NCBI GenBank assembly: GCA_964597575.1
Contig: CAZQXB010000001.1
Span: 64,964 to 128,963, forward strand
DNA from: an uncultured Gammaproteobacteria bacterium
GTDB taxonomy: Bacteria > Patescibacteriota > Patescibacteriia > Magasanikbacterales > UBA922
Direction of reading: 5' to 3'
Length of the DNA: 64,000 bases
Below the pieces are notes generated by a model that was not told where the DNA came from, did not search any database, and saw only the letters and a program-made list of their open reading frames with translations. The translations under genes were made by a program, and so were the position numbers. Position 1 is the first letter of the stretch. Each line of letters begins with the position of its first letter. Below, one piece after another: positions 3,314-53,980 of the stretch.

Positions 3314-3616
3314 TTATTTAGTTTTATGTATTAGATTTAATCCAAATCTAATTCTACTTGCTTGAGATTTTCCAACTTCGTTTTTTTCATCTATTCCGGC
3401 CTTTAACTCTACCCCTAAAACTTTAATTCCCCCTCCCACCGCCCCATTCCCTCCGGTTTTTTCGTCAACGGTTATTGCTATATCAAAATCTATATCCCCG
3501 GCCTTTTCTCTACTGGTAATGCGAATAAGCTCTGATCCCCGCTTGCGACACTCTTCGACAGCATCAGCAATATCGCCTACTGTCTTGACAATAAAATCCT
3601 TAAGTTCCATAGCCAT
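3314..3616 (-). CDS. hypothetical small Gly-rich protein (100 aa), translationally coupled to upstream zinc-ribbon gene
   Basis: ATG overlaps the TAA of the preceding ORF by 1 nt (TAATG). Acidic N-terminal helix then a GGNGAVGGGIKVLGVELKAG Gly-rich segment. No confident family assignment. Confidence 0.55.
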   Translation of the reverse strand: MAMELKDFIVKTVGDIADAVEECRKRGSELIRITSREKAGDIDFDIAITVDEKTGGNGAVGGGIKVLGVELKAGIDEKNEVGKSQASRIRFGLNLIHKTK

Positions 3617-3864: not shown

Positions 3865-6800
3865 TTACGAGCACCCGAGGGAGTCCCCGCAGTTCAAACA
3901 CTTATAGCAGGCGCCATTTCGAACGGTAATGTGTCCGCACGTTGGGCAGGCTGGCGCGTCACCATCCATTTCACTAAGCGCCTGGGCCATCGCATCTGGC
4001 ACATCCCCAGCCACCGCTCCTGAAGTAGCCTCATCAGCAACTTCGCTTTTCGCTTTTCCAGCCACAGCTGGTGCTATTTTTGGTAATTGAAGGGTTTCTT
4101 GCCCGGCAGTGTTTTCAGCCAAGTTCACTAAGTTTTCAAATTTGTTTTTTTGAATTCCTTTTGGAGGCACCTGTACAAAATCAGTGCGACCAAGGTACTC
4201 CATGCCAAGAACACGGAAGACAAAGTCGATAATGGAAGTACAGATTTTTACATTTGGGTGGTCAGTCATTCCGGCTGGCTCAAAACGAGTAAAGGTAAAG
4301 TTCTCTACATATTTTTCGAGCGGCACGCCGTACTGAAGACCCATAGAAACGGAAATCGCGAACATGTTCAACATACTGCGGAAGGCTGCACCTTCTTTAT
4401 ACATGTCAACGAAAATCTCAGCTAATTTTCCATCTGGATATTCACCGGTACGAAGCCAGATCTGCTGATTTCCAATTTTTGCTGAAACCGTAATACCACT
4501 GCGTTTCGCTGGAACTTTTCGTTTTTCCCCATGCACATAAACACGATGGTCAGTAATCGACCCATCTTTACTATAACTTGGTATGGCATGGGTATCTGGC
4601 ATGTGCTGGCCCAAAATTTTACTTGCGGCTAGAATTGCCTGGCTCAAATCTGCTTGTTTTACCACTTCAACTTCTTTCGCTACTGGTTTCTCAACCACCG
4701 CCTTCACCTCTTCTTTTATCTCTTCCTTCTTTACTTCTTTCTTTGAAGAAGTAGAGAGGGCTTGAGAAAGTTTACTTCCATCACGATACAATGCTACCGC
4801 TTTCAAACCAACGCGCCACGATTCTTCATAGGCAAATTTCACGTCTTCTACGGTCACATCATTTGGCATGTTGATGGTCTTTGAAATCGCGCCAGACAAA
4901 AATGGCTGGGCTGCGGCCATCATTCTTACATGTCCCAAGTAATGAATGTACCGAACGCCTTTCTTTCCACATTTGTTTGCGCAATCGAAAATAGGATAAT
5001 GTTCTGCTTTCAAATGAGGCGCACCTTCAATCGTCATGAGACCACACACAAAGTCATTCGCTCGATCAATTTCCTCATCAGAAAAACCAAGCGCTTTCAA
5101 CATGTGAAAGTTCGAATCATTATATTCCGTCGCACTGAAGCCAGCGCGCTTCATACACTCTTCACCAAGCGTCCACACATTAAAGGCAAAGCGGATTTCA
5201 AAGGCACCTTTCAAAGCTTTGTTCACCTTCTCAAGGTCTTCTGTGCTAAATCCTTTTGCTTTCAAACTTTCTGCATTAATGAATGGAGCATTCGTAATGT
5301 CGGCAGTCCCTTTCATGTAATCCATTACTTCCCCTACTTCGTTTTCTGCGTATCCAAGCTGGCGAAGTGCAGCTGGCACCGCTTCGTTCACAATCTTGAA
5401 GTAGCCTCCACCGGCGAGTTTTTTAAACTTCACCAAGGCAAAATCTGGTTCTACACCGGTCGTCGCACAGTCCATGAGAAGCCCAATCGTTCCGGTCGGA
5501 GCAAGAAGTGTGGTTTGAGCGTTGCGGTATCCGTATTTTTCTCCCCAAGCTACGGCTTCGTTCCAACTTTCTCGCGCAGCCGCGAGCAAATATGCCGGAG
5601 CATATTCTGGGTTAATACCAACAGGCATGATCGTAATTTTTTCGTATTCACTTTCTGGTGCATTGAATGCAGCGCGACGATGATTACGCATCACGCGAAG
5701 CATATCTTCACGATTCAAAGCGAATTTAGGGAATGGCCCGAGGAAGCTCGCGATTTCAGCGCTTGTTCGATACGACTCACCGGTCATTAGCGCGGTTACT
5801 GCACCCGTAAACGCGTACGCTTCTTCTGATTCATACGGAATACCGGCAGTCATAAGAACTGAACCAATATTCGCATACCCTAACCCGAGGGTGCGGTATT
5901 CATAACTCATCTGAGCAATTTCCTTACTTGGGTATTGCGCCATGAGGACACTAATTTCGAGTACTACGGTCCACAAACGAACACTGTGTTTAAAATCGTC
6001 AACCAAGAACTCCTGACGTTCCACATTATAATAGTGTGCCAAGTTGAGCGAGGCCAAGTTACACGCAGTGTTATCGAGGAACATGTATTCACTGCATGGG
6101 TTCGAACCATTGATCCGGCCTGATTGAGGGCAGGTGTGCCAATCGTTAATCGTACCATCATACTGCACCCCTGGGTCAGCACAGCGCCATGCAGCATATG
6201 CAATCGCATCCCAAATTTCTCGAGCTTTATGGGTGCGCGCAATAGTGCCGTCGGTTCTCCAGGTCAAATTCCAAGAAGCATCACGTTTTATCGCATCCAT
6301 GAAGGTGTGTGGTACACGTACGGAATTGTTCGAATTCTGACCAGACACGGTTTGGTATGCTTCCCCTTCGTAATCTGAGCCGTATCCTGCGGTAATCAAG
6401 GCGGCAACCTTCTTTTCTTCTTCTACTTTCCAGTTAATAAATTCCAAAATATCGGGGTGATCTGCATTCAAGATAACCATTTTTGCGGCACGGCGTGTCG
6501 TACCACCAGATTTAATTGCACCAGCTGCGCGGTCACCAATTTTAAGGAAACTCATGAGGCCGCTTGACATACCACCACCAGAAAGAGCTTCACCTCGTCC
6601 GCGAAGTCCAGAAAAGTTGGTACCCGTACCAGAGCCGTACTTAAACAACCGAGCTTCGCGCACCCATAGATCCATAATTCCGCCTTCACCTACTAAGTCA
6701 TCTCGAACCGACTGGATAAAACACGCGTGTGGTTGTGGGTGAGAGTAAGAATCTTTTGATTTGGTCAAAACACCAGAATCAGGATCAACATAATAGTGCC

Positions 6801-7371
6801 CTTGTGACGGACCATTAATGCCGTATGCCCAATGGAGCCCGGTATTAAACCACTGTGGTGAGTTCGGTGCGACACGCTGCGTGAGGAGCATGTACGCAAG
6901 CTCATCGTAAAACACTTGTGCATCTTCAGGAGTTGCAAAGTATCCATATCGCTCCCCCCAGTACCGCCAAGTTCCGACCAATCGATGCACCGTTTGTTTC
7001 ACGCTGGTTTCAGGTCCAAGCATGGGAGACCCGTCTGCGTTCTTTTTCGGTGATCCATCAGCATTAAATTGTGGCACCCCGGCTTTGCGAAAATATTTTT
7101 GTGCAACAATATCTGTCGCAACCTGTGACCATGTTTTCGGAATCTCAATTTCTTTCATTTCAAACACCACCGTACCATCCGGTTCACGAATAACTGAGGT
7201 GCGTAGATCATATTCGATCATGTCATACGGACTCACGCCTTGTTTGGTATACAAACGCTGACACTTAAGCCCATTCGGGTGATACGTAAAACGAGCCGAG
7301 GCATCGGCTCCGAGCTGAATGCTTTCAATAAAACGGGAATCAGTTGGCCCCATAGAATGAAGATAAGGCAT
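3865..7371 (-). CDS. nrdJ: adenosylcobalamin-dependent ribonucleoside-diphosphate/triphosphate reductase, class II (NrdJ), long form
   Basis: Collinear class II RNR pattern along the whole 1168-aa protein. C-terminal Cys cluster CPTCGHITVRNGACYKCLNCG typical of NrdJ. Internal Lys/Glu-rich linker. No intein motifs. Confidence 0.93.
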   Translation of the reverse strand: MPYLHSMGPTDSRFIESIQLGADASARFTYHPNGLKCQRLYTKQGVSPYDMIEYDLRTSVIREPDGTVVFEMKEIEIPKTWSQVATDIVAQKYFRKAGVPQFNADGSPKKNADGSPMLGPETSVKQTVHRLVGTWRYWGERYGYFATPEDAQVFYDELAYMLLTQRVAPNSPQWFNTGLHWAYGINGPSQGHYYVDPDSGVLTKSKDSYSHPQPHACFIQSVRDDLVGEGGIMDLWVREARLFKYGSGTGTNFSGLRGRGEALSGGGMSSGLMSFLKIGDRAAGAIKSGGTTRRAAKMVILNADHPDILEFINWKVEEEKKVAALITAGYGSDYEGEAYQTVSGQNSNNSVRVPHTFMDAIKRDASWNLTWRTDGTIARTHKAREIWDAIAYAAWRCADPGVQYDGTINDWHTCPQSGRINGSNPCSEYMFLDNTACNLASLNLAHYYNVERQEFLVDDFKHSVRLWTVVLEISVLMAQYPSKEIAQMSYEYRTLGLGYANIGSVLMTAGIPYESEEAYAFTGAVTALMTGESYRTSAEIASFLGPFPKFALNREDMLRVMRNHRRAAFNAPESEYEKITIMPVGINPEYAPAYLLAAARESWNEAVAWGEKYGYRNAQTTLLAPTGTIGLLMDCATTGVEPDFALVKFKKLAGGGYFKIVNEAVPAALRQLGYAENEVGEVMDYMKGTADITNAPFINAESLKAKGFSTEDLEKVNKALKGAFEIRFAFNVWTLGEECMKRAGFSATEYNDSNFHMLKALGFSDEEIDRANDFVCGLMTIEGAPHLKAEHYPIFDCANKCGKKGVRYIHYLGHVRMMAAAQPFLSGAISKTINMPNDVTVEDVKFAYEESWRVGLKAVALYRDGSKLSQALSTSSKKEVKKEEIKEEVKAVVEKPVAKEVEVVKQADLSQAILAASKILGQHMPDTHAIPSYSKDGSITDHRVYVHGEKRKVPAKRSGITVSAKIGNQQIWLRTGEYPDGKLAEIFVDMYKEGAAFRSMLNMFAISVSMGLQYGVPLEKYVENFTFTRFEPAGMTDHPNVKICTSIIDFVFRVLGMEYLGRTDFVQVPPKGIQKNKFENLVNLAENTAGQETLQLPKIAPAVAGKAKSEVADEATSGAVAGDVPDAMAQALSEMDGDAPACPTCGHITVRNGACYKCLNCGDSLGCS

Positions 7372-7664: not shown

Positions 7665-8702
7665 ATGTCATCTGAAATTCTTTTTGAAACAACAGAACCG
7701 GAACGGCTGATTGACCCGGACCAAGCCTCCCCCGAAGAAGAAACGATTGATCGGAGCCTTCGCCCCAAAACCTTGGCCGATTTTGTAGGCCAACACCACA
7801 TTAAGGATCCTCTCCTTATTGCTCTTCATGCAACGAAAAAACGCCAGGAACCTATGGAACACGTATTGTTATACGGGAACCCCGGCCTTGGAAAAACCAC
7901 GCTTGCAAGTATCATTGCGGGCGAAATGAATGCGCACATGACCATCACCTCTGGCCCAGCCCTAGAGCGCGTTGGGGATTTAGCAGCTATTTTAACCGGC
8001 CTTTCCCCTCACGACGTGCTATTTATCGATGAAATTCATCGCATGAATAAAACGATTGAAGAGGTGCTCTATAGCGCTATGGAGGATTTTGCGCTCGATA
8101 TTATTGTGGGCAAGGGCCCTGGTGCCAAAACCCTTCGGATGCCTGTTCCCCCCTTTACCTTGATTGGAGCCACTACCAAGTTAAACCTCCTCTCAAACCC
8201 CCTTCGCGATCGGTTTGGGCACGTCTTTCACCTCACGTTCTATACTCCCGAAGACATTGAAACCATTCTTCGCACCAACGCGAAACGGCTTGAAGTTGAA
8301 CTAAGCAAAGAAGCCGCTGAAATTATTGCTACTCGCGCAAGAAGAACTCCTCGGGTGGCCAATCGCCTCCTCAAACGAGTGCGGGATTTCGCAGAAGTCA
8401 AAGGAAATGGTATTATTTCTCTTGATATTGCCCATAGCGCCCTCCGTCTCCTTGAGGTAGATAAAGAGGGTCTCGACCATGTCGACCGTAAACTCCTTCA
8501 GGCAATTATCAAAACGTTCCAAGGAGGACCTGTGGGGCTCCAAACACTCGCTGCCACCATTGCGGAAGATATGGAGACGATCGAAACCGTGTACGAACCA
8601 TACCTTCTTCAAATTGGCATGTTAGAAAGAACCCCACGCGGGAGAAAAGCGACTCAAAACGCCTACCTTCACCTTGGACTCACACCACCCACTCTTTTAT
8701 GA
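7665..8702 (+). CDS. ruvB: Holliday junction branch-migration ATPase RuvB
   Basis: Walker [17 protein letters not shown] (Walker B/sensor) and full-length collinearity with RuvB. No ruvA adjacent. Confidence 0.95.
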
Positions 8703-9838: not shown

Positions 9839-11096
9839 TCTCAAACACCTCTCCACCATTCAGAGCACCCACGGTCTTTCTCCACTCGACCTCTTACCGA
9901 AAACCGAGGATATTCTTCGAGACACCGCATCGCTTCAAAAAAAGGAGCAGGGATTTATTGATATTCTCGATGACGAAAAAACCATCCGCTCTATTCAAAA
10001 ATTTGCCTCCGGAGTTAAAAATAAATATAGTCACATTGTAATTCTTGGAATTGGCGGCTCGGCTTTAGGGGCTACTGCTTTACACGACGCCTTAAAATTG
10101 AAAGTCAAAAAACAACCCAAACTTGTCGTCCTCGATAACATTGATCCGGCCATGATCGCGGAGGCAGAAAAGGAACTCCCTCTGAAAAAAACGCTTTTTC
10201 TTGTTATTACTAAATCGGGCACGACTCCAGAAACACTTGCGCAGTACTTCTTCTTTCAAAAGAAACTTGCAGCCGCAAAGCTCCCTTTAGTAAAACACAT
10301 CGTGGTTATTACCGATGAGCATGCGGGTTTCATGAGAGAAGAAGTGCAACGGCTCAAATTACCTTCTTTTTCAATTCCACAAAATGTCGGAGGGCGCTTC
10401 TCTCTATTTACCGCGGTCGGGCTTTTGCCTGCGGCCCTTCTTCAATACAACATTAAAGAATTAATTCACGGGGCCAAAACCATGCGTAAGTTGTTCTTAT
10501 CCCCGAACCCACTCCAAAACTTGCCGTATCAATTTGCCCATCTTCAAGCCGCGCTGTATAAGAAACAAAAAAATATTCACGTGCTCATGGTGTACAGCCA
10601 ACAACTTCTTCGCCTTGGCGATTGGTACCGACAACTTTTGGGCGAAAGCATTGGAAAAAAATCACAACAGAACAAAGAGTCCGTTGGCCTTACCCCACTT
10701 ACGGCTCTTGGGGTTACTGATCAGCACTCACAAATCCAACTCTTTAACGACGGGCCAAACGATAAGATATTCACAATTTTGCACACAGAAAAATCATTGG
10801 TTGATCAAAAAATTCCTGTAGTATCAAAACATGAGCATGTTCAATTTTTGCGTGGAGCAAGTTTTGCTTCTCTCTTTAATGCAGAGCGGAAAGCCACAAC
10901 AGACGCTCTCGTAGAAAATGATCGCCCAGTTATTTCGTTAGGAATCGATTACATCTCACCGTTTAGCTTTGGTGAACTCATCTTCTTTTTTGAAACGTCT
11001 GTCGCCTACCTTGGTGAACTTCTCGGGGTAAATGCATTTGATCAGCCAGGAGTTGAGCGCGGCAAGGTACTTACAAAAAAATACCTGAAGAATTGA
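9825..11096 (+). CDS. pgi: glucose-6-phosphate isomerase (short SIS-type PGI)
   Basis: ILGIGGSALGATAL phosphosugar-binding motif and PGI collinearity. Start moved to ATG 9825 because the longer ORF overlaps the DUF1294 gene. Confidence 0.88.
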   Translation: MISLNLKHLSTIQSTHGLSPLDLLPKTEDILRDTASLQKKEQGFIDILDDEKTIRSIQKFASGVKNKYSHIVILGIGGSALGATALHDALKLKVKKQPKLVVLDNIDPAMIAEAEKELPLKKTLFLVITKSGTTPETLAQYFFFQKKLAAAKLPLVKHIVVITDEHAGFMREEVQRLKLPSFSIPQNVGGRFSLFTAVGLLPAALLQYNIKELIHGAKTMRKLFLSPNPLQNLPYQFAHLQAALYKKQKNIHVLMVYSQQLLRLGDWYRQLLGESIGKKSQQNKESVGLTPLTALGVTDQHSQIQLFNDGPNDKIFTILHTEKSLVDQKIPVVSKHEHVQFLRGASFASLFNAERKATTDALVENDRPVISLGIDYISPFSFGELIFFFETSVAYLGELLGVNAFDQPGVERGKVLTKKYLKN

Positions 11097-11149
11097 AAAA
11101 GCCAGCCCCTCCTTCAAACGAAGGAAAGTCTGGCTTGAGGGAAGAGGCA

Positions 11150-11665
11150 TCACGCTTTCTTCTTTGCAGGGTTGTCTTCCGCATACCTTGCCACCACCCG
11201 GATCCCACCATCCCGGTCAGCACGAAGAGGAAGGCTCCCCACAGGCTGCTCCACAGTCTGACCATCATCCAAAGCAAAGAGTTCAGGTGTCGCGCCTGGT
11301 GGTAGACGTTCTGGCACGAGCCGACTACTCGTCAGAGGTGACCTTGACCCAACAGCCATTGACGGCTTCGGCTTAGGTGACGGGGAAGGCCTCGGCGGGG
11401 AAGGCACCGAATCTTCCTCACCCCGCAAATTTGTGCGTACAGGCGGGGGGCGCGGTGGAAATATTGACGCAGCAGATACAGGACTAGGTGGCGGAGAAAC
11501 CGCCGGCGCCACGTCTGGCTTCTTTCTCTCAGCGAGGAGGCTACTGATCTTGCCCACCTTCCTCCACAAGACTAGGGTCGCCGCAGCGAGCAAAAACGTG
11601 GCTACGACCAGGAACCACAGGACCTGTATGTGCACTTCGTGTATGTGCACTGTAGTACAACTCAT
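11150..11665 (-). CDS. hypothetical N-terminally anchored Pro/Ser/Ala-rich protein
   Basis: Single N-terminal TM (VLWFLVVATFLLAAATLVLW), then a PSPVS/PPRPSPSPKPKP low-complexity linker and an acidic C-terminal segment. The locally high GC is explained by amino-acid composition. Confidence 0.5.
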   Translation of the reverse strand: MSCTTVHIHEVHIQVLWFLVVATFLLAAATLVLWRKVGKISSLLAERKKPDVAPAVSPPPSPVSAASIFPPRPPPVRTNLRGEEDSVPSPPRPSPSPKPKPSMAVGSRSPLTSSRLVPERLPPGATPELFALDDGQTVEQPVGSLPLRADRDGGIRVVARYAEDNPAKKKA

Positions 11666-11782
11666 GAGTACCCCTCTTTCTTCTTTTACGCTATCACATA
11701 CTGAGCCATCTTACAAGCCCTGTCGCCTGTATTTCTTCTTCGTGGAAATCGAGGTATACTAAAGGTACTTTTCCCATTTTTT

Positions 11783-13687
11783 GTGTTTTTCTCTCGATTA
11801 TCTGCGCGTGATCGCGCTACGATTGTAGCACTCGCAAAAGCGTGCCGACAAAGCATCGTCACCATGACAACGAACGCCCGAAGTGGACACACTGGCGGTT
11901 CTTTAGGGTGCATTGATATCCTCGCCACCCTCTACGCAAAAGTAGTTAGTCAAACCAATGATCCGGTTGTTGTTTCGAATGGCCATGTATCCCCTGCGGT
12001 ATACGCGCTTTTAGCAGAACTTGGCGCTATTTCTAAAAACGATCTTCTTCAAAACTTTCGGCAGCATAATTCTATTTACGAAGGCCATGTCAGTCGGCAC
12101 GTTCCCGGGGTTTGGTATTCAACAGGCCCCCTTGGCACTGGTGTTTCGGCTGCCACAGGATTTGCACTCGCAAAAAAACTCCGCAATGAGCCAGGTCATG
12201 TATTTGCACTCCTCGGCGATGGCGAAGCCAACGAGGGCCAAGTATACGAAATGATGCATGTAGCAAAAAAATACGAACTCGATAACCTCACTATTCTTCT
12301 CGACCGAAACGGGGTACAGCTCTCGGGCGGAACAGAACGTATTCTTCCGGTCCAAATAGAATCCCACTTTGCGGCTGCAGAGTGGCGTGTGCTCTATGCC
12401 GATGGGCATAGCCCGAAAGATATATGGCACGCACTTTCGGCACCAAAAAGACCTGGCTTCCCTACCCTTATTTCATGTGCCACCGTTATGGGCAAAGGTG
12501 TGAGCTTTATGGAAAAAGAAGGCCGACTTTTCCATGCCACATGGCACGGTAAGGCACTCTCAGTTGAGGAAGCCAAACAAGCGCTTCAAGAATTGTCACT
12601 TACCCCGGCCGAAGCGAGCAGCCTTGATGCGTGGAAAAAAACACAACACTTCTCACCACCTGCTCCTACGTTCAAAAAAGTACTGGAACCGACTGCCATT
12701 GAGCCCGGTGCTCCACGCGTCTATGGTCCAGAAACTACTACTGACTGTCGTACAGCGTACGGAGTAGCCTTACTTGATTTGGCGACCAAAAATAGCCAGG
12801 TAGTTGCGCTGACCGCAGACCTTGCTGACTCTGTTAAAACTTCTTTTGTAGAAAAGCAACTCCCAAAACAGCACATTGACTGTGGAGTAGCCGAGCAGCA
12901 TATGGTTTCCATGGCCGGAGGGCTTTCCCTGTCTGGCTTTACTCCTTTTGTTTCAACATTTGGGGTATTTATGACGAGTCGAGCCAAAGACCAAGCTCGG
13001 GTAAACGATATTAATGGCACAAACGTAAAGATGGTTGCGACACATTGCGGGTTATCGGTTGGAGAAGATGGCACTACCCACCAGGCTATAGATGACATGG
13101 GTTCAATGCTCGGTTTATTAAATACACTCGTCATGGAACCGGTCGACCCAAACCATACCGATAGAATTATTCGCTATGCGGCGAACCATTACGGCAACAT
13201 GTATATCCGTATGGGTCGGCAAAAAATTCCTATCATTACCAAAGAAGATGGCATGCCTTTTTATGGTGCAGATTACGAATACACCTACGGAAGATGCGAC
13301 CTCATTCGTGAAGGTGCAGACCTTACGGTAGTAGCTTCTGGACCTATGGTTTTAGCAGCACTTACAGCGATAAACACTATAAAGAAGATGCTTCCAGAAA
13401 AATCGATTGCCCTTGTGGCGGTCAGTTCCATTAAGCAATTCGACGACACTCTTGTTCAAACCCTTCGAAAAAGTGAAAAAATCATTACTGTTGAAGATCA
13501 TAATACCCATTCTGGCCTTGGAAGTGCGGTTGGGAACATTATTGCCGATCTTGGCCTTACTCCAAAAAAGTTTGTAAAACTGGGGGTCGATACCTACATG
13601 CGCTCAGCAACAGCTGAGGAATTATATGAACTCGCCGGGCTTTCCCCGAAACAATTGGCAAATCGTTTCCATGAGCTCCTCTCTTGA
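11783..13687 (+). CDS. tkt: transketolase
   Basis: GHxGGxLG thiamine-diphosphate motif (GHTGGSLG), full-length collinearity covering the N-terminal, pyrimidine-binding and C-terminal domains. Confidence 0.9.
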   Translation: MFFSRLSARDRATIVALAKACRQSIVTMTTNARSGHTGGSLGCIDILATLYAKVVSQTNDPVVVSNGHVSPAVYALLAELGAISKNDLLQNFRQHNSIYEGHVSRHVPGVWYSTGPLGTGVSAATGFALAKKLRNEPGHVFALLGDGEANEGQVYEMMHVAKKYELDNLTILLDRNGVQLSGGTERILPVQIESHFAAAEWRVLYADGHSPKDIWHALSAPKRPGFPTLISCATVMGKGVSFMEKEGRLFHATWHGKALSVEEAKQALQELSLTPAEASSLDAWKKTQHFSPPAPTFKKVLEPTAIEPGAPRVYGPETTTDCRTAYGVALLDLATKNSQVVALTADLADSVKTSFVEKQLPKQHIDCGVAEQHMVSMAGGLSLSGFTPFVSTFGVFMTSRAKDQARVNDINGTNVKMVATHCGLSVGEDGTTHQAIDDMGSMLGLLNTLVMEPVDPNHTDRIIRYAANHYGNMYIRMGRQKIPIITKEDGMPFYGADYEYTYGRCDLIREGADLTVVASGPMVLAALTAINTIKKMLPEKSIALVAVSSIKQFDDTLVQTLRKSEKIITVEDHNTHSGLGSAVGNIIADLGLTPKKFVKLGVDTYMRSATAEELYELAGLSPKQLANRFHELLS

Positions 13688-13732
13688 TTTTCCCTGGAGT
13701 TTTTGATATATTCTTCCCACCACAATTGATAT

Positions 13733-13815
13733 GCCGCGGTGATGAAATGGTATACATGAGGGACTTAAAATCCCTTGACCGCAAGGTCGTGCGGGTTCGA
13801 GTCCCGCCCGCGGCA
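13733..13815 (+). tRNA. tRNA-Leu (anticodon TAA)
   Basis: Acceptor GCCGCGG/CCGCGGC+A. Anticodon loop CTTAAAA. Long variable arm TGACCGCAAGGTCGT. T-arm GGGTTCGAGTCCC. CCA not encoded. Confidence 0.85.
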
Positions 13816-13821
13816 CAAATA

Positions 13822-13856
13822 AAATAAACATCCGTACGGATGTTTATTTTATTTTG
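13822..13856 (+). terminator. rho-independent terminator after tRNA-Leu
   Basis: Hairpin AAACATCCG-tac-CGGATGTTT followed by TATTTTATTTT. Confidence 0.6.
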
Positions 13857-13867
13857 TACTGCCTAAA

Positions 13868-14001
13868 GGGACTCGAACCGAAAGGGTTTGGGAAAACTGT
13901 TTGGCGGTTTTCCCACCTCGTGCAGGGGGATGGTTGGGAAGGGGTGGAAACCTCTTCCCAAGAGGAGTGGGGCGACGAGTGAGATGTCCCCGCCCGCGGC
14001 A
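13868..14001 (+). repeat. tRNA-trailer structured element E1: inverted T-arm copy, two hairpins, direct copy of the tRNA-Leu 3' end
   Basis: Starts GGGACTCGAACC, the reverse complement of the tRNA-Leu T-arm GGTTCGAGTCCC. Ends GTCCCCGCCCGCGGCA, a copy of the tRNA 3' end. Internal hairpins GGGAAAAC..GTTTTCCC and GGAAGGGG-tggaaa-CCTCTTCC (with a G.U). Followed by its own terminator at 14004-14044. Confidence 0.5.
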
Positions 14002-14098
14002 CGAATAAAAATAACTCCTACATGTAGGGGTTATTTTTATTCGTGCAGAATGTGGGACGAAGTTAGAGTTTTCATTTTAGAATTAGACTAGCAGTCTA

Positions 14099-14866
14099 CT
14101 AAATTCTTCTTGCTAAGTACCCCTTCATTAAATTCATTATACCGATATTTATTGATTCTATCGTTTTTTGAAAAGCTTTGTGGTATTCCTCAGGGTTAGT
14201 TTTTCCAGCTATATAGTTTTTATGGAAACCCGCGATTGCTGCGTCACAATAGAAATATCTAGTATCTACCATGCGATCCCCCCTTGAGTAAAATGCGCTT
14301 TTGTTCGCTTCACCTTCATCTTGTCTAGAAAAGAAATGATTGGCAAAACCATTACGTAGTTGGCCCCCTGAATTGTAGTAATGGAAGGAGCCGTTGTTTC
14401 TGATATCTTCAAGTATTCTGATGAAAACAGCGCCTGTTTGAGTAAGATTTTTTTTGTTTGCAACATCTATCAGCTGGTCCCAAATTTTTTTACTATCAGC
14501 ATTTAGCCTACTAAGAAGCCCATTAAACTCTGAGGACTCTATAACTCTACTTTGTTTTTTAATCAATATAAAAATTTCATAAACTGTAGAAGTGATCAAT
14601 CTCTCTAAGTGATTTTTCATACCACCAGATTCTCCCGCATCACAGCTAATGTCGGTTATATTTTTGTCTTTAAAGTATTTTTTGTATTGAATAAGATAAA
14701 AAAGCAAGCTTTTAAGATCATTGTATGCTAAGCCTAAAATAAGAAAAAAGGTATCAAAATCGTTCTTTCTTTCGGGCTTGATAATTTTTTTTGGATCAAA
14801 TTTTCTTATGTGTCCAGAAAAACCTTCTGTTCGCATACAATCTAGTTTAGAGTATTTAAAAAACAC
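14099..14866 (-). CDS. hypothetical protein (255 aa) in AT-rich island; possible HEPN-like Rx5H motif
   Basis: Long ORF in about 33% GC DNA. C-terminal region contains RNGFANH (Rx4-6H). No confident homology recognised. Confidence 0.55.
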   Translation of the reverse strand: MFFKYSKLDCMRTEGFSGHIRKFDPKKIIKPERKNDFDTFFLILGLAYNDLKSLLFYLIQYKKYFKDKNITDISCDAGESGGMKNHLERLITSTVYEIFILIKKQSRVIESSEFNGLLSRLNADSKKIWDQLIDVANKKNLTQTGAVFIRILEDIRNNGSFHYYNSGGQLRNGFANHFFSRQDEGEANKSAFYSRGDRMVDTRYFYCDAAIAGFHKNYIAGKTNPEEYHKAFQKTIESINIGIMNLMKGYLARRI

Positions 14867-15137
14867 ACGGTGAAAATGCTATCTGAAAAGCACTGTTTGA
14901 CCATTATGTATAGAGCTGTGTGTTATTGATAAGGTGATCATTTTTGGCTAATGTGTATCAAACTAAAATGTGGACAACTTTGACCAATAAGAGAGATTAA
15001 TGATTAAATTTATCTATACTTAGCAAAAAATTAAATTTGTCGATCTCCCCAGCGAGGTATTTTTTTCTGTGAGATACTACTATTGTACAAAAGTTACATC
15101 CTTTTGTCTGTAAAATTTACAGGGTTGATATAAAACT

Positions 15138-16340
15138 ATGAAAGTATTCTTATTAGGGGCTATTTTGGATAATGTCTGCTTTGAGAAAGCCGCACAAGTG
15201 ATAGATGGTCTTATCTATAATGATCTTACAAAAAAGGCAAGCATCGAGGCAGGTCTAGCTGACAGTGATTTTTTGATTGCTGACATTGGAAATATAAATA
15301 ATGTGCCACTTGCGCAAACTCTCAATGATAGTTGCCACCATATTGGACAGAGAATTGAGGGCGGTGGGGTCTTACTGTGTTTTTCTGGTAGGGAATTTAA
15401 TGACGGGCTGAATTATACTTGGCTTAAAAATATTGGCTTGAATCTTCTACCTGAAAACCTTCAGGCCAACGATATCCTTTTTAAGGGTAATTACCCATTT
15501 ATTACAGATTTTACACGGTATGTAAAACTTTTTTTTCATTCCGTGATTTTTCGCAATCAGTTTCAACTGCCCGCATATTGTAGTCAGATAGCATTAAATA
15601 AGAGTGGTAACTGCGCTGGGGTTTATTGGAAGCTAGGGAAGGGTCACATTTTTATTGTTCCCGACTGTCGTGATAAAAATTATTTTACAAAATTTTTTAT
15701 AGATACAATAATTCCAAAAATAGAAACCATTTTTGTTGTTGATGGCGGTAGTAAGGAGATGGTACCTAAAGAGATAAGTGGTTTAAAGGTCAAAGGTCAA
15801 TCAGACCTTGAAGTGCAGATTGAATCTCAAAAGTTAAAGATTGAAGAGGAGCAAAAAAAGCTTGTTATCTTGGAGAAACAGTTTGAAGAATTAGACGAGT
15901 GGAAACAGCTTTTATGGCAAACTGGAACACCGCTGGAAAACATTGTTAAAAAATTTTTTGAAGCTTTTGCGGGTCTTACTTTGGAAAAAAAGGAAACCGA
16001 TTTAGTGGGTGAATATAATGGAAAAGAACTTTTTATTGAAGTGAAAGGGAATGTTGGATGCATAAATCACAAAAGCGATTTTAGGCAAATAGAAGAGCGA
16101 AAAAATTACGATGCCAAAGATCCTCAAAATACCATTGCTTTGCTTGTGGGCAACCCTTTTCGTCTTCATCCTTTGGAAAAACGTCCGCCAGAAGCCGAGC
16201 ACCTTTTTGCCCATACATCTATTCCTATTGCAGAAAGGCTTGGTATCGGTCTAATTTGGACAAAAGAGCTTTTTGATATAGTTAATGATTTGCTTTTAAG
16301 TTCAGACCCTGATCAAAAAAACTTATTATTGACAAACTGA
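15138..16340 (+). CDS. hypothetical protein (400 aa): flavodoxin-like N-domain, central coiled coil, C-terminal PD-(D/E)xK-like motif
   Basis: beta-alpha-beta pattern (KVFLLG..DFLIAD..GGGVLLCF), heptad-rich segment LEVQIESQKLKIEEEQKKLVILEKQFEELDEW, then TDLVGEYNGKELFIEVKG (D...ExK). Confidence 0.55.
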   Translation: MKVFLLGAILDNVCFEKAAQVIDGLIYNDLTKKASIEAGLADSDFLIADIGNINNVPLAQTLNDSCHHIGQRIEGGGVLLCFSGREFNDGLNYTWLKNIGLNLLPENLQANDILFKGNYPFITDFTRYVKLFFHSVIFRNQFQLPAYCSQIALNKSGNCAGVYWKLGKGHIFIVPDCRDKNYFTKFFIDTIIPKIETIFVVDGGSKEMVPKEISGLKVKGQSDLEVQIESQKLKIEEEQKKLVILEKQFEELDEWKQLLWQTGTPLENIVKKFFEAFAGLTLEKKETDLVGEYNGKELFIEVKGNVGCINHKSDFRQIEERKNYDAKDPQNTIALLVGNPFRLHPLEKRPPEAEHLFAHTSIPIAERLGIGLIWTKELFDIVNDLLLSSDPDQKNLLLTN

Positions 16341-16406
16341 TCAATTTTGCCGGTGTTTTTAAGTATAAAAAGTAATTTTAATTTAAATACTAACCTCGCT
16401 TTGTAT

Positions 16407-16691
16407 ATGTCTAAGCTCTCTAAACCCAGTGTTGTTCTTGGTCAGTGGATAGATGTCGGTAACGATCCTGCGATTGAGGCAGTTGTTTCTCGTATTAATA
16501 AATTTAGTGTATTTGGAGATATAGAAATTGTCTTTATGAGTGGAGGCAAACCAGTTAATATAGATATTTTTTGGATAAATGATTGTTGGAGTTTGGAAAA
16601 GTCTGGTGCTGGTGGCTATGCAGAAGACTACCCTCGGCTAAATGAATTTGTAATGATTCTGAAAGAACATAGAAGGTACAGTGTCTCCTAG
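16407..16691 (+). CDS. hypothetical small protein (about 94 aa)
   Basis: The ORF-track start at 16347 is a TTG; the first ATG is at 16407. No recognisable motifs. Confidence 0.35.
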   Translation: MSKLSKPSVVLGQWIDVGNDPAIEAVVSRINKFSVFGDIEIVFMSGGKPVNIDIFWINDCWSLEKSGAGGYAEDYPRLNEFVMILKEHRRYSVS

Positions 16692-16973
16692 ATAAATTAT
16701 TAATTTAATTTTGTTTTTCGCATATTTAATCAACCGGAACCCATCAATCAGCTCAATAAGCCTATCTTCACAAAATAACCTGCCTCAAGAGGGAAATTGT
16801 TTGTTGTAACGGAGCATCCTTTTCGATTTGATAGTTCATTCGCGGCTGCTTCACAAAAATTTGCGTAATTCCAGCGTAAATTTTTATCGCTCATACCCGG
16901 CCGTTAAGCGGGGTTTGGGTCATATAAATTGTTGGTATGACCGTGTCATACTTTTTGCATGATCGGTAGCGCC

Positions 16974-21320: not shown

Positions 21321-21622
21321 CGGTTGGCTACCTTTTTTTGTTTTTATATATGTTTTCAGAGAAACCTGGAGAAAAGAAAAATGACCCATACGCTGTAATG
21401 GGAATCATACTTTCGTTTATGGGTATGGGAATAACGTATAACTTCTTTGCCTATCTTGGCCTCTTATGTGGACTTGTAGCTCTCAGGAGATTGCACGAAC
21501 GCACTGACATTTACAGAAAGGGGGCCGGATACGCCAAGGCTGCCATTACCTACGGGATTGTCTTTGGGCCAATAGTTGATATTGTTTTCTGGTACTTAAT
21601 TGATATTCGTTGGGCTCAGTAA
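21311..21622 (+). CDS. small membrane protein (103 aa; start uncertain, GTG 21311 or ATG 21350)
   Basis: Two to three hydrophobic helices (GIILSFMGMGITYNFFAYLGLLCGLVAL; ITYGIVFGPIVDIVFWYLI). No SD sequence at either candidate start. Confidence 0.5.
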   Translation: MGSPVGYLFLFLYMFSEKPGEKKNDPYAVMGIILSFMGMGITYNFFAYLGLLCGLVALRRLHERTDIYRKGAGYAKAAITYGIVFGPIVDIVFWYLIDIRWAQ

Positions 21623-21658
21623 AAAAACAAAATAGCTCTTTAAGAGCTATTTTGAAAT

Positions 21659-22081
21659 TCATTTAGGCGGAAGGGCAATTAACTGGGCAATTTTATTAAC
21701 CGGATCTACTTCTAGTTTTACATTCCATGCCTCTAACATTTTTTGTCCAATTAAAATTCCGCAATCTGGTGAATTTGTAGGTGAATTCACAACTGCAAAA
21801 GATTTTCTACCAACCAACGAAACATTTCCGGCCGTATCGATTGAGCTTATGGTGGTACCATCTGCCAAAGTCCAGGTCCCAAAACTAGCCATTAACTCAA
21901 GTCCATTTTGCTGAACACTTTTAAATGGCATCATTAAGAAACCACTAAAACCCGTATCGATTTGACCTTCCCAGATATATCCTATGTGATTGGGGTCACC
22001 ATTGGGTACCAGATTCTCCAAGAGAAAAGGAAGTAAAATTTGTGTTCCTTCAAAACGACAGTTCGCAACTATTACCCTCAT
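21659..22081 (-). CDS. retropepsin-like (clan AA) aspartic protease
   Basis: QIDTGFSG active-site DTG motif plus a C-terminal GILIGQKML flap-like motif. 140 aa. Overlaps the upstream gene by ATGA. Confidence 0.55.
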   Translation of the reverse strand: MRVIVANCRFEGTQILLPFLLENLVPNGDPNHIGYIWEGQIDTGFSGFLMMPFKSVQQNGLELMASFGTWTLADGTTISSIDTAGNVSLVGRKSFAVVNSPTNSPDCGILIGQKMLEAWNVKLEVDPVNKIAQLIALPPK

Positions 22082-22293
22082 AAATTAAAAACAAAAGATA
22101 CCGCTTTCTGGTATTCTGGTCTGGATGTAATTTCATTCAATTTTGCAGGGTTATCTACCACTTCATGTCTTTTTAAATACGGAAAAACCACCACAGTTTT
22201 TCCTCTGTTTCGATCTTTGAAATTACCTCCCAAATCATCGAGGTATTGTTGAGAATCTCTTTGAGTTTTTATTGCTTCGTCTAAAATTGTCAT
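22078..22293 (-). CDS. hypothetical small protein (71 aa), translationally coupled to the aspartic protease gene
   Basis: 4-nt ATGA overlap with 21659-22081. No motifs recognised. Confidence 0.45.
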   Translation of the reverse strand: MTILDEAIKTQRDSQQYLDDLGGNFKDRNRGKTVVVFPYLKRHEVVDNPAKLNEITSRPEYQKAVSFVFNL

Positions 22294-22398
22294 ATAATTT
22301 TAATGGCTCAGCTCTTTTCCCAATATACTCTTAAAGAATCAAAAAAGCAACATGTGTAAAGACAGCCTCCTATGATTCATTAAGTCATTTTTCACACC

Positions 22399-22785
22399 CT
22401 ACTTTAAAAGTGCCCTTTGCATATACTCCTGCCTTTCTTCAATTCTATTCATATCGCGTGAAAAATCTATCCTTAATTCTGCATTATTTTCGATAACTTC
22501 ATTTATTTTGTCGTTTACTGAATCTTGTGTTTGATAATATGAAGCTTTCATCCCTGCCATGAAGATAACAACAGCAACTATTAAAGAAATAAATAAAAAT
22601 AACCCACCAATAATAACACCTATAAGAAGGTTATTCATTTTTCCAGAAAAACCTTCCACTTCTTTCCTAATATCTTCAAATTTTTTTTGAAAGACAGCTT
22701 CTGCAACATCGCCTGTTTTGGTTGCAGTATTCAAATCAATCATCGACTGCACCTCCTCCTGAGTTAGCTTTTTTCTAGGGGCCAT
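22399..22785 (-). CDS. small single-pass membrane protein with coiled-coil regions (128 aa)
   Basis: Central TM (LLIGVIIGGLFLFISLIVAVVIFMAG) flanked by charged helical segments. Confidence 0.5.
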   Translation of the reverse strand: MAPRKKLTQEEVQSMIDLNTATKTGDVAEAVFQKKFEDIRKEVEGFSGKMNNLLIGVIIGGLFLFISLIVAVVIFMAGMKASYYQTQDSVNDKINEVIENNAELRIDFSRDMNRIEERQEYMQRALLK

Positions 22786-22789
22786 ACAC

Positions 22790-23047
22790 TTACTTTCCTT
22801 GCGAAATTACCCCCACTATTTTATAGACAGTGTCATTATCTTCTAACTGCACAACTAAATCCAAGTAACGTAAAACATGAAAATCTATTCCTTCAATTTT
22901 CTCACCCTGACAAAATCTAGTATCTTTTTCTATTACACCATTGTTTCCTATTTTTATTTTTTCTTTAGTAATTAAAACATCATTCTTCTCTTCAGAAAAA
23001 ATATCTAGGAACCTCATTTTTATTTTCGTCTCTGTCGTTTCTGGCAT
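22790..23047 (-). CDS. hypothetical small protein (85 aa)
   Basis: The ORF-track start at 23089 is a TTG lying inside the 23065-23087 palindrome. First ATG at 23047 used instead. Confidence 0.4.
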   Translation of the reverse strand: MPETTETKIKMRFLDIFSEEKNDVLITKEKIKIGNNGVIEKDTRFCQGEKIEGIDFHVLRYLDLVVQLEDNDTVYKIVGVISQGK

Positions 23048-23064
23048 AGAAAAAACTAAATTTT

Positions 23065-23087
23065 GAGTGTATACTCTGTATACACTC
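23065..23087. repeat. palindrome GAGTGTATAC-TCT-GTATACACTC (variant of the dispersed GTATACAC palindrome family)
   Basis: 10-nt arms in perfect inverted orientation, between the transposase stop and the 22790 gene. Confidence 0.5.
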
Positions 23088-23151
23088 AAGTATACTCAAA
23101 CTATGAAAAAAATCAACCCGCAATCCACCTTTCACTCCCTCCTCCACAAAG

Positions 23152-23994
23152 CTATCTCACCACCCGCGAAAGCAAAGCCGGGAAAATTGGGATCCCCGAC
23201 CGCAGGCAGTTATACCGGAAAACAGCCTCGTTCACGTACCACTGGAGCCACTTCCCGGAAATCCAATGGTGGCACCGGTAAAGCTTCTTAAGCTGAGACC
23301 AAAATCCCTCAATACCATTCGTAGATACGTTCCCCCGAACGTATTCTCTTTTACTGTGGCATACTGAAAAATGGTTATATCGCCTACCTAAGTCATCATA
23401 TGAATGGCTTTCATCGGTCATAACATCGGACGCCCAATCAATAACCGAAAAGATATACTTCGATAAGGTAAGTTTCTGAATGTCCCGCACCACCACAGCA
23501 AACACCTTTCCCTCTCGTTTCAGAATCCCGAACACAGGGATTTTGTTTTTTCTCCAGCCACACCCACCTGCTCTGCGGGTTTTCCCTCCAATAAACGTTT
23601 CATCCGCCTCAAACACCCCTTCTGATTTCTCCATATCCTGCTCCATAAGCTCACGAATCTTGTGACCCATACGCCAGGCGGTCTTATAAGTTACCCCTAA
23701 CACCCTCTGCAACTCCTTTGCCGGGACACCCCGGCGCGTTTGTGAGAATAGGTATATACTAAGAAACCACAGTTTTAGGGATGTAGAGGACTTATTGAAA
23801 ATCGTGTCGGAGAGTGGATCTATCTGGTAGCCACAAGCACAGGCATAGGTCTTACGACCCTCTACCCTATAGAACTTGTTCTTGAGACACTTTGGACAGA
23901 GGTGACCTTCCCCATATTTATACTTAAAAACGTACTCTAGGCAGGCATCATCGTCCGGAAATTGTTTATTAAATTGAGAGATAGAATACTTCAT
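23152..23994 (-). CDS. IS1595-family (ISXO2-like) transposase
   Basis: N-terminal transposase zinc ribbon (HLCPKC...CACGYQ) and the DDE_Tnp_IS1595 domain. C-terminal ...WYVNEAVFRYN motif typical of the family. Confidence 0.9.
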   Translation of the reverse strand: MKYSISQFNKQFPDDDACLEYVFKYKYGEGHLCPKCLKNKFYRVEGRKTYACACGYQIDPLSDTIFNKSSTSLKLWFLSIYLFSQTRRGVPAKELQRVLGVTYKTAWRMGHKIRELMEQDMEKSEGVFEADETFIGGKTRRAGGCGWRKNKIPVFGILKREGKVFAVVVRDIQKLTLSKYIFSVIDWASDVMTDESHSYDDLGRRYNHFSVCHSKREYVRGNVSTNGIEGFWSQLKKLYRCHHWISGKWLQWYVNEAVFRYNCLRSGIPIFPALLSRVVR

Positions 23995-24389: not shown

Positions 24390-24412
24390 TTGTATACACT
24401 AGTGTATACAAA
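24390..24412. repeat. 24-bp perfect palindrome TTGTATACACTAGTGTATACAA (copy A)
   Basis: Exact inverted repeat in intergenic DNA. Same motif is at 25002-25025 and 33430-33452. Confidence 0.6.
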
Positions 24413-24804
24413 TGAGTTATTCACAGGCTAAAAAAGTTATTCACTCACATGTGGACAAATCTGTGCATAAAATACACCGACAATAAGTACTACAAAGTAG
24501 GCTGTTTCATGTGAAACACTCCATGAGGGGAATCTCGGAAAAAGACTCATACGCAATCTGCTATCTCTTTTAGAGATTAGGGTGAGAGTATGTACTTAGT
24601 GGAAAACCAAAGTCAGTGTTCAATTCTGCTTTACCCAAAAATCATTATCTACACTGCCGCCCCAAGGATAAACTGTATAGGCGTAGTGTCCATCTTTAGA
24701 AAGCCGAAAAAATGCAAAGTACGCTACAAATCTAAAAACCAAAAAAACCTCACACCGGGGCACGGGCAGGTAGTGTTCCAAGCAAAAGAAAACGATGTAC
24801 AGTG

Positions 24805-24876
24805 TGGCCTCACCACGAATCGAACGTGGATTTAGACGTTAGGAGTGTCTCGTTCTATCCATTGAACTATGGGGCC
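24805..24876 (-). tRNA. tRNA-Arg (anticodon CCT), with C5-A68 and A31-C39 mismatches
   Basis: Minus-strand cloverleaf GGCCCCA...TGAGGCCA. Anticodon loop CTCCTAA. T-arm CCACGTTCGATTCGTGG. Two stem mismatches, so possibly a degenerating copy. Confidence 0.55.
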
Positions 24877-25001: not shown

Positions 25002-25025
25002 TTTGTATACACAAGTGTATACAAA
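25002..25025. repeat. 24-bp palindrome TTTGTATACACAAGTGTATACAAA (copy B), about 75 nt upstream of rmuC
   Basis: Near-perfect inverted repeat. A TATACT -10-like hexamer follows at 25043-25048. Confidence 0.6.
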
Positions 25026-25098
25026 TATACTGATTATGGGTATATACTCATTTCTCTTTTTCCGATATAATAGCCCTACCAACCTATAAAATCAAGTT

Positions 25099-33429: not shown

Positions 33430-33452
33430 TTTGTATACACTAGTGTATACAA
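33430..33452. repeat. palindrome TTTGTATACACTAGTGTATACAA (copy C) plus degenerate half-sites at 33608-33653
   Basis: Exact copy of the 24390 motif. AGTGTATACAAAT half-site at 33640-33653 and TTATACACAT x2 at 33610-33630. Confidence 0.55.
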
Positions 33453-33737
33453 TAGAGTTTCAAAAAGATATCCCCAAAGAGAACAAATGTTCCACAGTAT
33501 TGTCCCCAGAAAATTATGAATCGCAATGCGAAGAGGCTTTTGCTCTTTCTCTTTTTCATAGAACTTTAAAATGCTCGTGCCTTCGATTCTATCCCCATAT
33601 TCACAAAGTTATACACATACTTATACACATGTATAGAATAGTGTATACAAATAATTTTTTTTAAACATCCAGAGGATTGGACCGGTGTATTTATTAGGGG
33701 GGGTTGGTGTAGGTATGCAGCCGGGGCATACCCCTCC

Positions 33738-41282: not shown

Positions 41283-41357
<75 letters not shown>

Positions 41358-41406
41358 TAAAATAAGTACTCTCCCTTGTGGGGAGTATTTATTTTATTCG
41401 TGTTAC

Positions 41407-41541: not shown

Positions 41542-41616
41542 CTGACAAACAAGACTGTTACGGTCTTGTTTTGTTTTACGGAAAAGAAGCTTGTAAACAG
41601 AAAGGGGGCTTGCCCC

Positions 41617-53908: not shown

Positions 53909-53980
<72 letters not shown>

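Follow-up and report, generated by a model that had tools for sequence, protein, structure and literature searches.

The described systems closest to the locus analyzed here include tDNA islands, in which an intact tRNA gene is accompanied by a second, displaced copy of its 3´ part that begins in the T-loop (PMC4383910). The classical logic of these islands is a crossover in the T-loop, with the 3´ end supplied by the element (PMC4383910). We examined a tRNA-Leu gene that is followed by a copy of its own 3´ end, in a window of 64 kb (by which we mean the whole stretch of DNA that was analyzed). The window comes from a CPR/Patescibacteria genome; its next relatives, as judged by transketolase (Tkt), are only 65-66% identical, and more distant Tkt relatives carry the labels Magasanik-, Peregrini- or Gracilibacteria. 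Genome size in CPR bacteria is ~0.9 Mb, of which very little is non-coding. The notable result of the analysis is a family of ~170-190-bp structured, tRNA-tail-duplicating modules behind CPR tRNA and tmRNA genes.

The tRNA-Leu(UAA) gene is intact (ARAGORN; Rfam, 59.6 bits), and its sequence is identical across L005, L006, L007, L008 and L047. The insert behind it, denoted E1, is ~190 nt long and non-coding, with no ORF inside, and the order across the locus is tRNA, P1, L1, a ~100-nt core, R1 and P2. The last 21 nt of tRNA-Leu (13796-13816), from T54 to the base past the discriminator, are denoted R0. The features are as follows.

11783-13687, directly 5´ of tRNA-Leu: tkt, encoding transketolase (Pfam)
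13684-13712, plus strand: promoter-like site of tRNA-Leu, TTGATT and TATATT spaced by 17 nt (consensus scan)
13733-13816, plus strand: tRNA-Leu(UAA) gene (ARAGORN, Rfam)
13817-13854, no strand: P1, an AT-rich perfect palindrome with 18-bp arms, an A tract and a T tract (sequence reading)
13856-13879, plus strand: L1 (inverted match to the tRNA at +52)
13880-13979, plus strand: E1 core, consisting of a purine-rich linker, hairpin 1, hairpin 2 and the motif AGAGGAG...GCGACG (folding, covariation)
13889-13915, plus strand: hairpin 1 of the E1 core
13934-13961, plus strand: hairpin 2 of the E1 core (GGAAGGGGTGGAAACC...)
13980-14002, plus strand: R1, repeating the tRNA in direct orientation from its T-loop to the base past the discriminator (repeat search)
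14003-14042, no strand: P2, a second palindromic terminator (palindrome search)
14043-14064, plus strand: L2, a decayed second L segment (GTGCAGAATGTGGGACGAAGTT; sequence reading; aligns with L1 of L033)

The initial annotation had an E-type element following tRNA-Leu(TAA), and ARAGORN, Rfam and the repeat match confirm this order. The interval that it gave for the pair, 13868-14044, does hold the element (the inner part of L, the core, R1 and P2) but not the tRNA, which lies further upstream at 13733-13816 on the plus strand. The promoter-like site of the tRNA is unchanged in position and sequence in relatives L006 and L007. P1 has the form of a bidirectional intrinsic terminator, to judge from its letters, and hairpins of the same style are also present 3´ of other tRNAs in the window. 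The assemblies of the source organism and of a related one (L005, L047) break at the tRNA-Leu 3´ end or inside P1.

Two segments of E1 are related to the T-arm of the adjacent tRNA. The inner part of L1 (13868-13879, GGGACTCGAACC) is antisense to the T-loop and to the bases that open the T-stem 3´ strand, while the outer part bears no relation to the acceptor stem. From the tRNA-Leu 3´ end, the 14-mer CCCGCCCGCGGCAC recurs without mismatch at 13989-14002, and the displaced tRNA 3´ end thus lies within E1, 186 bp downstream; the T-loop of this R1 reads TGAGATGT, where tRNA-Leu has TTCGAGT. This tRNA-derived duplication is part of E1 and not of the AT-rich island further downstream. The core of E1 is 83% identical over 59 nt to the core of a copy behind tRNA-Phe, and this match, together with the recurrence of the 14-mer, identifies E1 as a repeated element. 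E1 scores 86.7 bits with the covariance model of the family and has a predicted fold of -66.5 kcal/mol (z = -3.1). The full palindrome around P2 spans 13999-14046 and is 96% complementary. P2 and L2 (14003-14064) form the beginning of a second, decayed unit between E1 and the island, and L2 would mark the start of an older truncated unit abutting the island.

Four of the nine tRNA genes in the window (Leu, Phe, Pro and Cys) carry one or two such units, in the order tRNA-P-L-core-R-P. In addition to E1, these are as follows.

41400-41543, plus strand: E-type copy behind tRNA-Phe (41283-41357; covariance model, 92.8 bits)
41786-41901, plus strand: D2-type copy behind tRNA-Pro (41661-41735; repeat family D2; 31 bits)
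41975-42097, plus strand: unit of a third type (F), in tandem behind the Pro D2 copy (repeat search)
54030-54160, plus strand: D2-type copy behind tRNA-Cys (53909-53981), 91% identical to the Pro copy

In the initial annotation it went unnoticed that the several types, E1 among them, share a single architecture tied to tRNA and tmRNA 3´ ends. The same order is found in other CPR contigs behind tRNA-Leu(CAA), tRNA-Leu(CAG), tRNA-Asp, tRNA-Ser, tRNA-Arg, tRNA-Ala and tmRNA. A scan of one genome per species with a 22-nt core pattern gave three true matches, behind tRNA-Leu(CAA) in Falkowbacteria, tRNA-Asp in Magasanikbacteria and tmRNA on a CPR-like contig. Further copies were added by a metagenome scan: one at tRNA-Ser, two at orthologous tRNA-Arg(CCG) genes, a tandem pair, and one beside a tRNA pseudogene. 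All true matches of these two scans of public collections were behind a t(m)RNA gene, a tRNA pseudogene or another unit. The covariance model recovered all 11 E-type training copies at 87-145 bits, scored the D2 type at 26-31 bits, and also found a tandem array behind another tRNA-Asp. In a scan blind to the core, which used the last 16 nt of each t(m)RNA gene with up to 2 edits within 700 nt, the tail repeat was detected 152-168 nt downstream in 14 of 32 genes and upstream in none of the 32. It also brought to light two more copies, both within a tRNA cluster, one of which has an AT-rich core of a fourth type. Across this sample of ~16 copies, several of them near-identical, there are at least four unrelated core types with one common unit length. 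No description of such elements was found in full-text literature searches, so the family is apparently undescribed, and its modules have so far been found only in CPR/Patescibacteria. They are absent from phage and plasmid collections (blastn) and from viral collections including IMG/VR.

The relation of L and R to the local tRNA holds across copies. R1 copies the gene from T54 to the discriminator and at times a few bases into the flank, with 0-3 edits relative to the tRNA over the last 16 nt; in the tRNA-Cys copy, R1 matches the tRNA end without a difference, and the identity continues for 10 nt into the flank. The T-loop of R1 is systematically altered, with TTC changed to TGA in the window-type copies, and the Falkowbacteria-type R1 has G53 changed to A and one extra base at the loop/stem junction. 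Over 13 copies, L is complementary to the segment from T54 through about C63 at 83%, compared to 19%, the level of chance, for the acceptor-stem part. L and R can pair into a closing stem that includes either a tandem G.A/A.G mismatch or a bulged base; in the tRNA-Phe copy this stem is 17 bp long and has the tandem G.A/A.G mismatch. The cores are ~95% identical behind five different tRNAs, where P and the outer L segment have nothing in common. P2-L2 of the Leu locus is ~85% identical to P1-L1 of tRNA-Asp in L033, with an entirely different R adjoining. This sharing suggests that P-L modules travel and that R is locus-specific. Since the P-L modules are common to the tRNA-Asp and tRNA-Leu loci and R is always locus-specific, we lean towards R being copied from the host.

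Tandem arrays show a gradient of decay, the outermost R being the most decayed (R2 of Pro; L041). In the F unit behind tRNA-Pro, whose type has a relative in L041, R2 (42079-42097) is the most decayed repeat and is followed by P3, homologous to the P1 of that locus, and by a decayed L3 at ~42144-42166. Arrays end in R-P-L with the following core decayed or missing, as seen for L2 of Leu, L3 of Pro, L001 and L003.

The tkt-tRNA-Leu-gdh neighborhood is kept in relatives, with different contents. L006 (Tkt 66%) has tkt, an identical tRNA-Leu, one terminator, a DUF2164 gene, gdh and AI-2E, and carries neither an E element nor the island between tRNA-Leu and gdh. L007 and L008 (Tkt 65%) have an identical tRNA-Leu, a terminator, a 50-nt E relic and a DUF4256 gene on the opposite strand. 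The relic consists of L and a decayed R (GTCCCGTACCGCAGCAC), the core being deleted, and the island is again absent. The small ORF directly 5´ of gdh is non-homologous among all three genomes. With relatives that lack the island and differ in both the state of the E element and the genes, the interval from tRNA-Leu to gdh is a hypervariable hot spot. The suggestion in the initial annotation that this integration site has been used repeatedly is borne out by the differing contents of L006 and L007/L008 and by the decayed second unit P2-L2 in the window; the outcome that would have spoken against it, the same three island genes at this position with native composition, was not found in these relatives. 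No empty/occupied pair was seen between close strains, and loss of E1 is inseparable from gain because the sole empty site, L006, is in a relative at 66% Tkt identity.

The DNA between the decayed second unit and the region of gdh is an AT-rich block with three ORFs.

14065-16950, no strand: AT-rich foreign block (composition; absent in L006, L007 and L008)
14099-14866, minus strand: ORF of 255 aa (245 aa in public data), all-alpha, no family match
15138-16340, plus strand: ORF of 400 aa, no family match (AlphaFold pLDDT 87.6)
16410-16691, plus strand: ORF of ~94 aa (114 aa from a TTG at 16347), no significant family match

The contrast in composition that had been noted for this block is real. 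The GC content of 14099-16691 is 34.8%, compared to 45.2% (sd 2.4%) in all other 2.6-kb windows (z = -4.25), the lowest for any 2.6-kb window of the 64 kb, and the tetranucleotide distance is likewise extreme (z = 7.4). GC3 is 29-31% for the three ORFs, compared to 42-46% for tkt, gdh and pgi. The left edge of the block lies between 14065 and 14099, and the right edge between 16691 and ~16950, where the GC content climbs and a terminator-like hairpin is found at 16934-16952.

The description of the ORFs as three unrelated hypothetical genes was fair. None has a match above noise in Pfam, NCBIfam, PHROGs or PADLOC; the lone PADLOC match is at noise level (E = 0.025), and no known defence-system protein was detected. 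Homologs are rare, with 17 clusters among 5.8 billion for the 400-aa ORF and six for the 255-aa ORF, and homologs of the two never co-occur elsewhere. In the AlphaFold model, the 400-aa protein has an N-terminal glutamine-amidotransferase-like (flavodoxin-like) domain, to which all of its Foldseek matches are confined, a long coiled coil at about residues 221-278, and a C-terminal alpha/beta domain in which E301-V-K303 is invariant. No structural match was obtained for the 255-aa protein with AlphaFold and Foldseek or with a PDB profile search. Homologs of the 400-aa protein are found in an insertion in a pur operon beside HATPase_c, near RadC/HNH/Vsr and near Bro-N, and the 255-aa homolog in L052 adjoins Eco57I and T5orf172-ResIII genes. 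Given these neighbors elsewhere, which include restriction-modification, HNH, Vsr and helicase genes, the island genes are probably conflict- or defence-type cargo. No tRNA or E element was found near the homologs at the loci examined.

The initial annotation had also proposed that the island entered by tRNA-directed integration, with a direct repeat of the tRNA-Leu 3´ end expected near 16.7-17.0 kb. That repeat is absent at up to 3-4 mismatches or edits, and no copy of the tRNA-Leu 3´ end was found at the far side of the island or anywhere downstream at up to 4 edits. No E remnant was detected at the far side by blastn-short, no terminal repeats mark the island itself, and searches of Pfam, NCBIfam, PHROGs and PADLOC gave no integrase in it. 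In that form the proposal is unsupported, and the island is best read as a horizontal acquisition of three rare accessory genes, separate from E1.

Taking these data together, we favor with moderate confidence a reading in which the tRNA-Leu 3´ flank has been hit repeatedly, E1 is a small non-autonomous module that inserts at t(m)RNA 3´ ends, and the island is a separate acquisition. Repeated insertion beside the tRNA is suggested by the shared modules, the decay gradient, the R-P-L array ends, the assembly breaks, and the empty and relic sites. The unit is a non-coding segment of ~170-190 bp composed of P, a 10-12-nt antisense L, a ~100-nt folding core and an R of ~20 nt, and would land at the 3´ end of a tRNA or tmRNA gene, leaving the tRNA intact. 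Newcomers would enter beside the tRNA, and older units would be displaced outward, where they decay. As the units encode nothing, they would have to be mobilized in trans, presumably by an enzyme absent from the window. No recombinase, HUH, RT or Cas1-type gene was found near any copy in the 64-kb window (26 other ORFs scanned), and no autonomous partner of the E units was found. The sole transposase of the window, of the IS1595 family (23152-23994), is unrelated to the element ends. Entry could follow either of two routes: recombination in the T-loop, with the unit bringing a replacement 3´ end, or insertion just past the discriminator with a target duplication of ~20 nt.

We know of no precedent in transposition for an L segment that tracks the local tRNA while the cores remain near-identical. 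This gap counts against reading the units as insertion modules, as does the single length over at least four core types. The lack of a mobilizing gene near the copies in the window and the absence of the units from phage, plasmid and viral collections weigh in the same direction, and the stronger conservation of cores than of flanks would be equally explained by selection in situ on a functional RNA.

The best-surviving alternative, which we nevertheless consider rather unlikely, is that the E elements have a function as structured RNAs, transcribed by read-through from the tRNA promoter or within tRNA operons, in which the L:R stem or pairing of L with the T-arm serves tRNA maturation, quality control or a decoy function, so that the match to the tRNA is kept by selection. 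Much of the evidence on folding is compatible with such a role. Hairpin pairing is intact in 91.4% of cells, compared to 83.2% after shuffling, with none of 500 shuffles reaching the observed value; ten hairpin pairs are changed on both sides, and five of the seven pairs of hairpin 1 are compensatory. The tRNA-Phe copy folds far better than shuffled sequence, into a four-hairpin junction of -68.5 kcal/mol (z = -7.2). The unpaired linkers of the core are conserved as well, and between the orthologous Arg(CCG) loci L035 and L046 the core is more conserved than the flanks. From the covariation of the hairpins, the core appears to act as a folded single strand, and the wobble-pair counts single out neither strand, nor RNA over DNA, which does not help the case for a particular RNA. 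Other features are also as a functional RNA would have them: all of the copies are co-oriented with their tRNA, the L041 units lie inside a tRNA cluster without a second terminator, R1 is exact in most intact copies and decayed in L007, where the core is deleted, and the inner part of L fits its cognate tRNA better than other tRNAs (10.0 compared to 7.9 of 12 positions; permutation p < 5e-5). In most copies, however, a strong palindromic terminator separates the tRNA from the element, and scanning both strands revealed no promoter-like site for the element itself. Rfam is equally silent. With Rfam 15 the element matches no family and the window gives only tRNAs at the gathering score, and a search of 13700-14100 at E up to 10 gave nothing beyond noise for the element. 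R1 has decayed beside an intact core in L035 and L041x, and a copy is retained beside a dead tRNA in L031. The element is also dispensable, since it is missing from L006 despite the identical tRNA. Finally, tandem stacks of differing core types with a gradient of decay resemble accretion rather than a gene.

A more far-reaching version of the insertion-module reading, which we regard as doubtful, is that L is a programmable antisense guide that, together with the folded core (as RNA or ssDNA), directs an enzyme acting in trans to the T-arm of a chosen tRNA or tmRNA gene, with the ~20-nt tail of that gene copied at each insertion. If so, CPR bacteria would possess an insertion system of a new type, guided by a nucleic acid and specific for tRNA ends, with proximal growth as in CRISPR arrays, a prospect to which we attach the same doubt.

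It is still less probable that a single tyrosine-integrase island in the T-loop, having lost its integrase and far att site, left E1, P2-L2 and the AT-rich block behind, and that E elements generally arose by deletion from larger islands, retaining the attL arm plus the attR arm. Classical tDNA islands are recognized by an intact tRNA with a displaced 3´ fragment that extends from the T-loop to the gene end (PMC4383910), tmRNA also serves as a site, and variable genes adjoin the element. Random deletions, however, would be expected to vary in size, and the repeat lies at a constant 152-168 nt in the 14 copies with at least four core types; moreover, no larger version with genes between R0 and the core was seen at any of the loci. 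The AT-rich block lies outside the R0-R1 interval and comes with neither a distal repeat nor an integrase, and the covariation of the cores as folded hairpins sets them apart from double-stranded arm sites. It is highly improbable that the AT-rich block is native, with a composition that reflects what it does or how it is expressed, and that E1 is nothing more than a local duplication of a terminator region: there are further AT-rich stretches at 21.6-23.2 kb, and AT-rich palindromic terminators are common in the source genome (repeat family D6), but the block is missing in all relatives with shared flanking genes and is the strongest compositional outlier of the window, and other phylum-level CPR lineages have the E1 architecture too, with one core match exact over 22 nt.

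Other identities were tried and rejected. Against a minus-strand tRNA-like gene, the reverse complement of L has a 3´ acceptor part with no relation to the 5´ part, and in three of four copies folding is poorer on the minus strand. Hammerhead-like motifs gave no support for a ribozyme, by eye or with Rfam. For a phage or plasmid origin, the 16-mer matches in IMG/VR are chance matches inside genes, and other viral, phage and plasmid scans were empty.

If the units are mobile, as the insertion-module reading has it, they would be the smallest known elements targeting tRNA-gene 3´ ends without damage to the tRNA, and the target-matched antisense segment would suggest a reprogrammable targeting principle. 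If they are RNAs, they would form a new tRNA-linked class. In either case, they break assemblies at tRNA genes (as in L005 and L047), yield false "tRNA fragments" in annotation, and mark sites of foreign-gene accumulation in streamlined genomes.

Compared to known systems, the units resemble MITEs and CIMEs in being short, non-coding, multi-copy and structured, in having imperfect inverted termini (the inner parts of L and R), and in needing mobilization in trans. They differ in that the termini copy the target and are not transposase inverted repeats: the inverted segments are local T-arm copies, and the IS1595 transposase of the window does not correspond to them. No autonomous partner is known, the direct repeat of ~20 bp exceeds the usual target duplications, and the units are strictly at t(m)RNA 3´ ends.

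With integron attC sites and the attP(+) of CTX phage, the units would share an imperfect hairpin whose L:R stem imitates a double-stranded target, with a fixed G.A/A.G mismatch or a single additional bulged base. All units of an array point the same way, growth would be proximal, and sequence varies with structure kept. The E boxes, which read YYGAAC...GTGARA or GATTCGA, are only similar to those of attC (YYGAAC/GTKRRA compared to RYYYAAC/GTTRRRY). In contrast to attC arrays, there are no cassette ORFs between the units and no IntI or Xer beside them in the window, and the core is a multi-hairpin junction.

Elements that recognize their target by base pairing, namely group II introns (EBS/IBS), IS110 (bridge RNA) and IS200/IS605 (guide tetranucleotides), have a parallel in the 10-12 nt of the inner part of L, which are complementary to the target and depend on it. 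These systems come with a ribozyme, recombinase or TnpA/TnpB gene, and the E units do not; nor does the element match guide-element RNAs, IS605-orfB RNAs, HEARO, T-box, tRNA-like RNAs or ribozymes in Rfam. The junctions are compatible with insertion past the GTTC of the T-loop, a fixed tetranucleotide of the kind that IS200/IS605-type elements would use. A 20-nt direct repeat would be unexpected for IS200/IS605 or IS91-type elements, however, and no HUH or TnpB was seen in the 64-kb window.

A further comparison is that with tyrosine-integrase tDNA islands (the Islander paradigm, with its T-loop sublocation). An E unit differs from these in spanning only ~170-190 bp, coding for nothing and having no integrase nearby, in its single-strand-folding core and short antisense T-arm copy, and in an R that is seemingly host-derived while the P-L modules travel; the 2.6-kb island, for its part, has neither a flanking repeat nor an integrase. 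Of what characterizes tDNA islands, E1 lacks the integrase but has the intact tRNA, the 3´ repeat and, in the distant relative L006, an empty site. As in tDNA islands, the t(m)RNA gene is left intact with a direct repeat of its 3´ part at the other boundary, and the units also use tmRNA, stack in tandem with the older ones outermost, and vary between relatives.

Public short-read contigs from the same organism and from a relative at 66% terminate within the palindromic terminator P1 or within the 3´ end of tRNA-Leu, at the following positions:

7953-7983, end of contig L005 (same organism)
3454-3532, end of contig L047 (relative with an identical tRNA-Leu)

Such breaks are the effect that a repeated tRNA tail would have on assembly. 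A homologue of the 400-aa gene of the AT-rich island was detected on L050, a contig of ~0.95 Mb (952,420 bp), where it is inserted together with a 350-aa gene between purH and guaA (4930-7233). The 350-aa gene has weak matches to HATPase_c and DUF4325, and the two genes may constitute an accessory module.

Units of the E1 family, the non-coding modules found 3´ of tRNA and tmRNA genes, were also observed in other CPR contigs. On L031 (3925-4179), an E-type unit adjoins a decayed tRNA pseudogene, at which ARAGORN detects no tRNA. R1, the direct copy of the tRNA 3´ end, still resembles a good tRNA 3´ end and is matched by the antisense segment L. A tandem array 3´ of tRNA-Asp on L033 (7725-8198) consists of a long core variant followed by an E-type unit, and its first terminator is ~85% identical to terminator P2 at the tRNA-Leu locus of the window. 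On L041 (1758-2713), a tRNA cluster reads Pro-Val-Ala-[unit]-Gly-Leu-[unit]-Pro. For the unit 3´ of tRNA-Ala, the AT-rich core bears no relation to the core types E, D2 and F, though the L/R layout and the length are the same as for those types.

Around the tRNA-Leu neighborhood, the GC content rises locally to 0.55-0.60 between pgi and tkt (11000-11700). Two ORFs were noted:

11150-11665, minus strand, proline-rich ORF of 171 aa without a Pfam match, within the GC-rich segment
17085-17348, ORF of 87 aa directly upstream of gdh

The same gene call as for the 171-aa ORF is present on L005. For the 87-aa ORF, both GC (0.55) and GC3 (0.66) are well above the genome average, and the ORFs that occupy this position in the relatives L006 (DUF2164) and L007 are not homologous to it.

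In the region 21600-23994, a second AT-rich patch (GC 0.32-0.39) contains two small ORFs with a GC3 of 0.29-0.31 and is associated with two features:

23152-23994, minus strand, IS1595-family DDE transposase gene adjoining the patch
24804-24876, tRNA-Arg(CCT), with the patch situated downstream

Neither a repeat of the tRNA-Arg 3´ end nor an E-type unit was found for this patch. A palindromic box, TTGTATACAC(T/A)AGTGTATACAA, occurs four times in the window, as two pairs:

24390-24418, palindromic box
25003-25031, palindromic box
33431-33459, palindromic box
33629-33657, palindromic box

One of these pairs flanks tRNA-Arg and the start of an RmuC gene. The boxes look like operator sites for a putative dimeric regulator.
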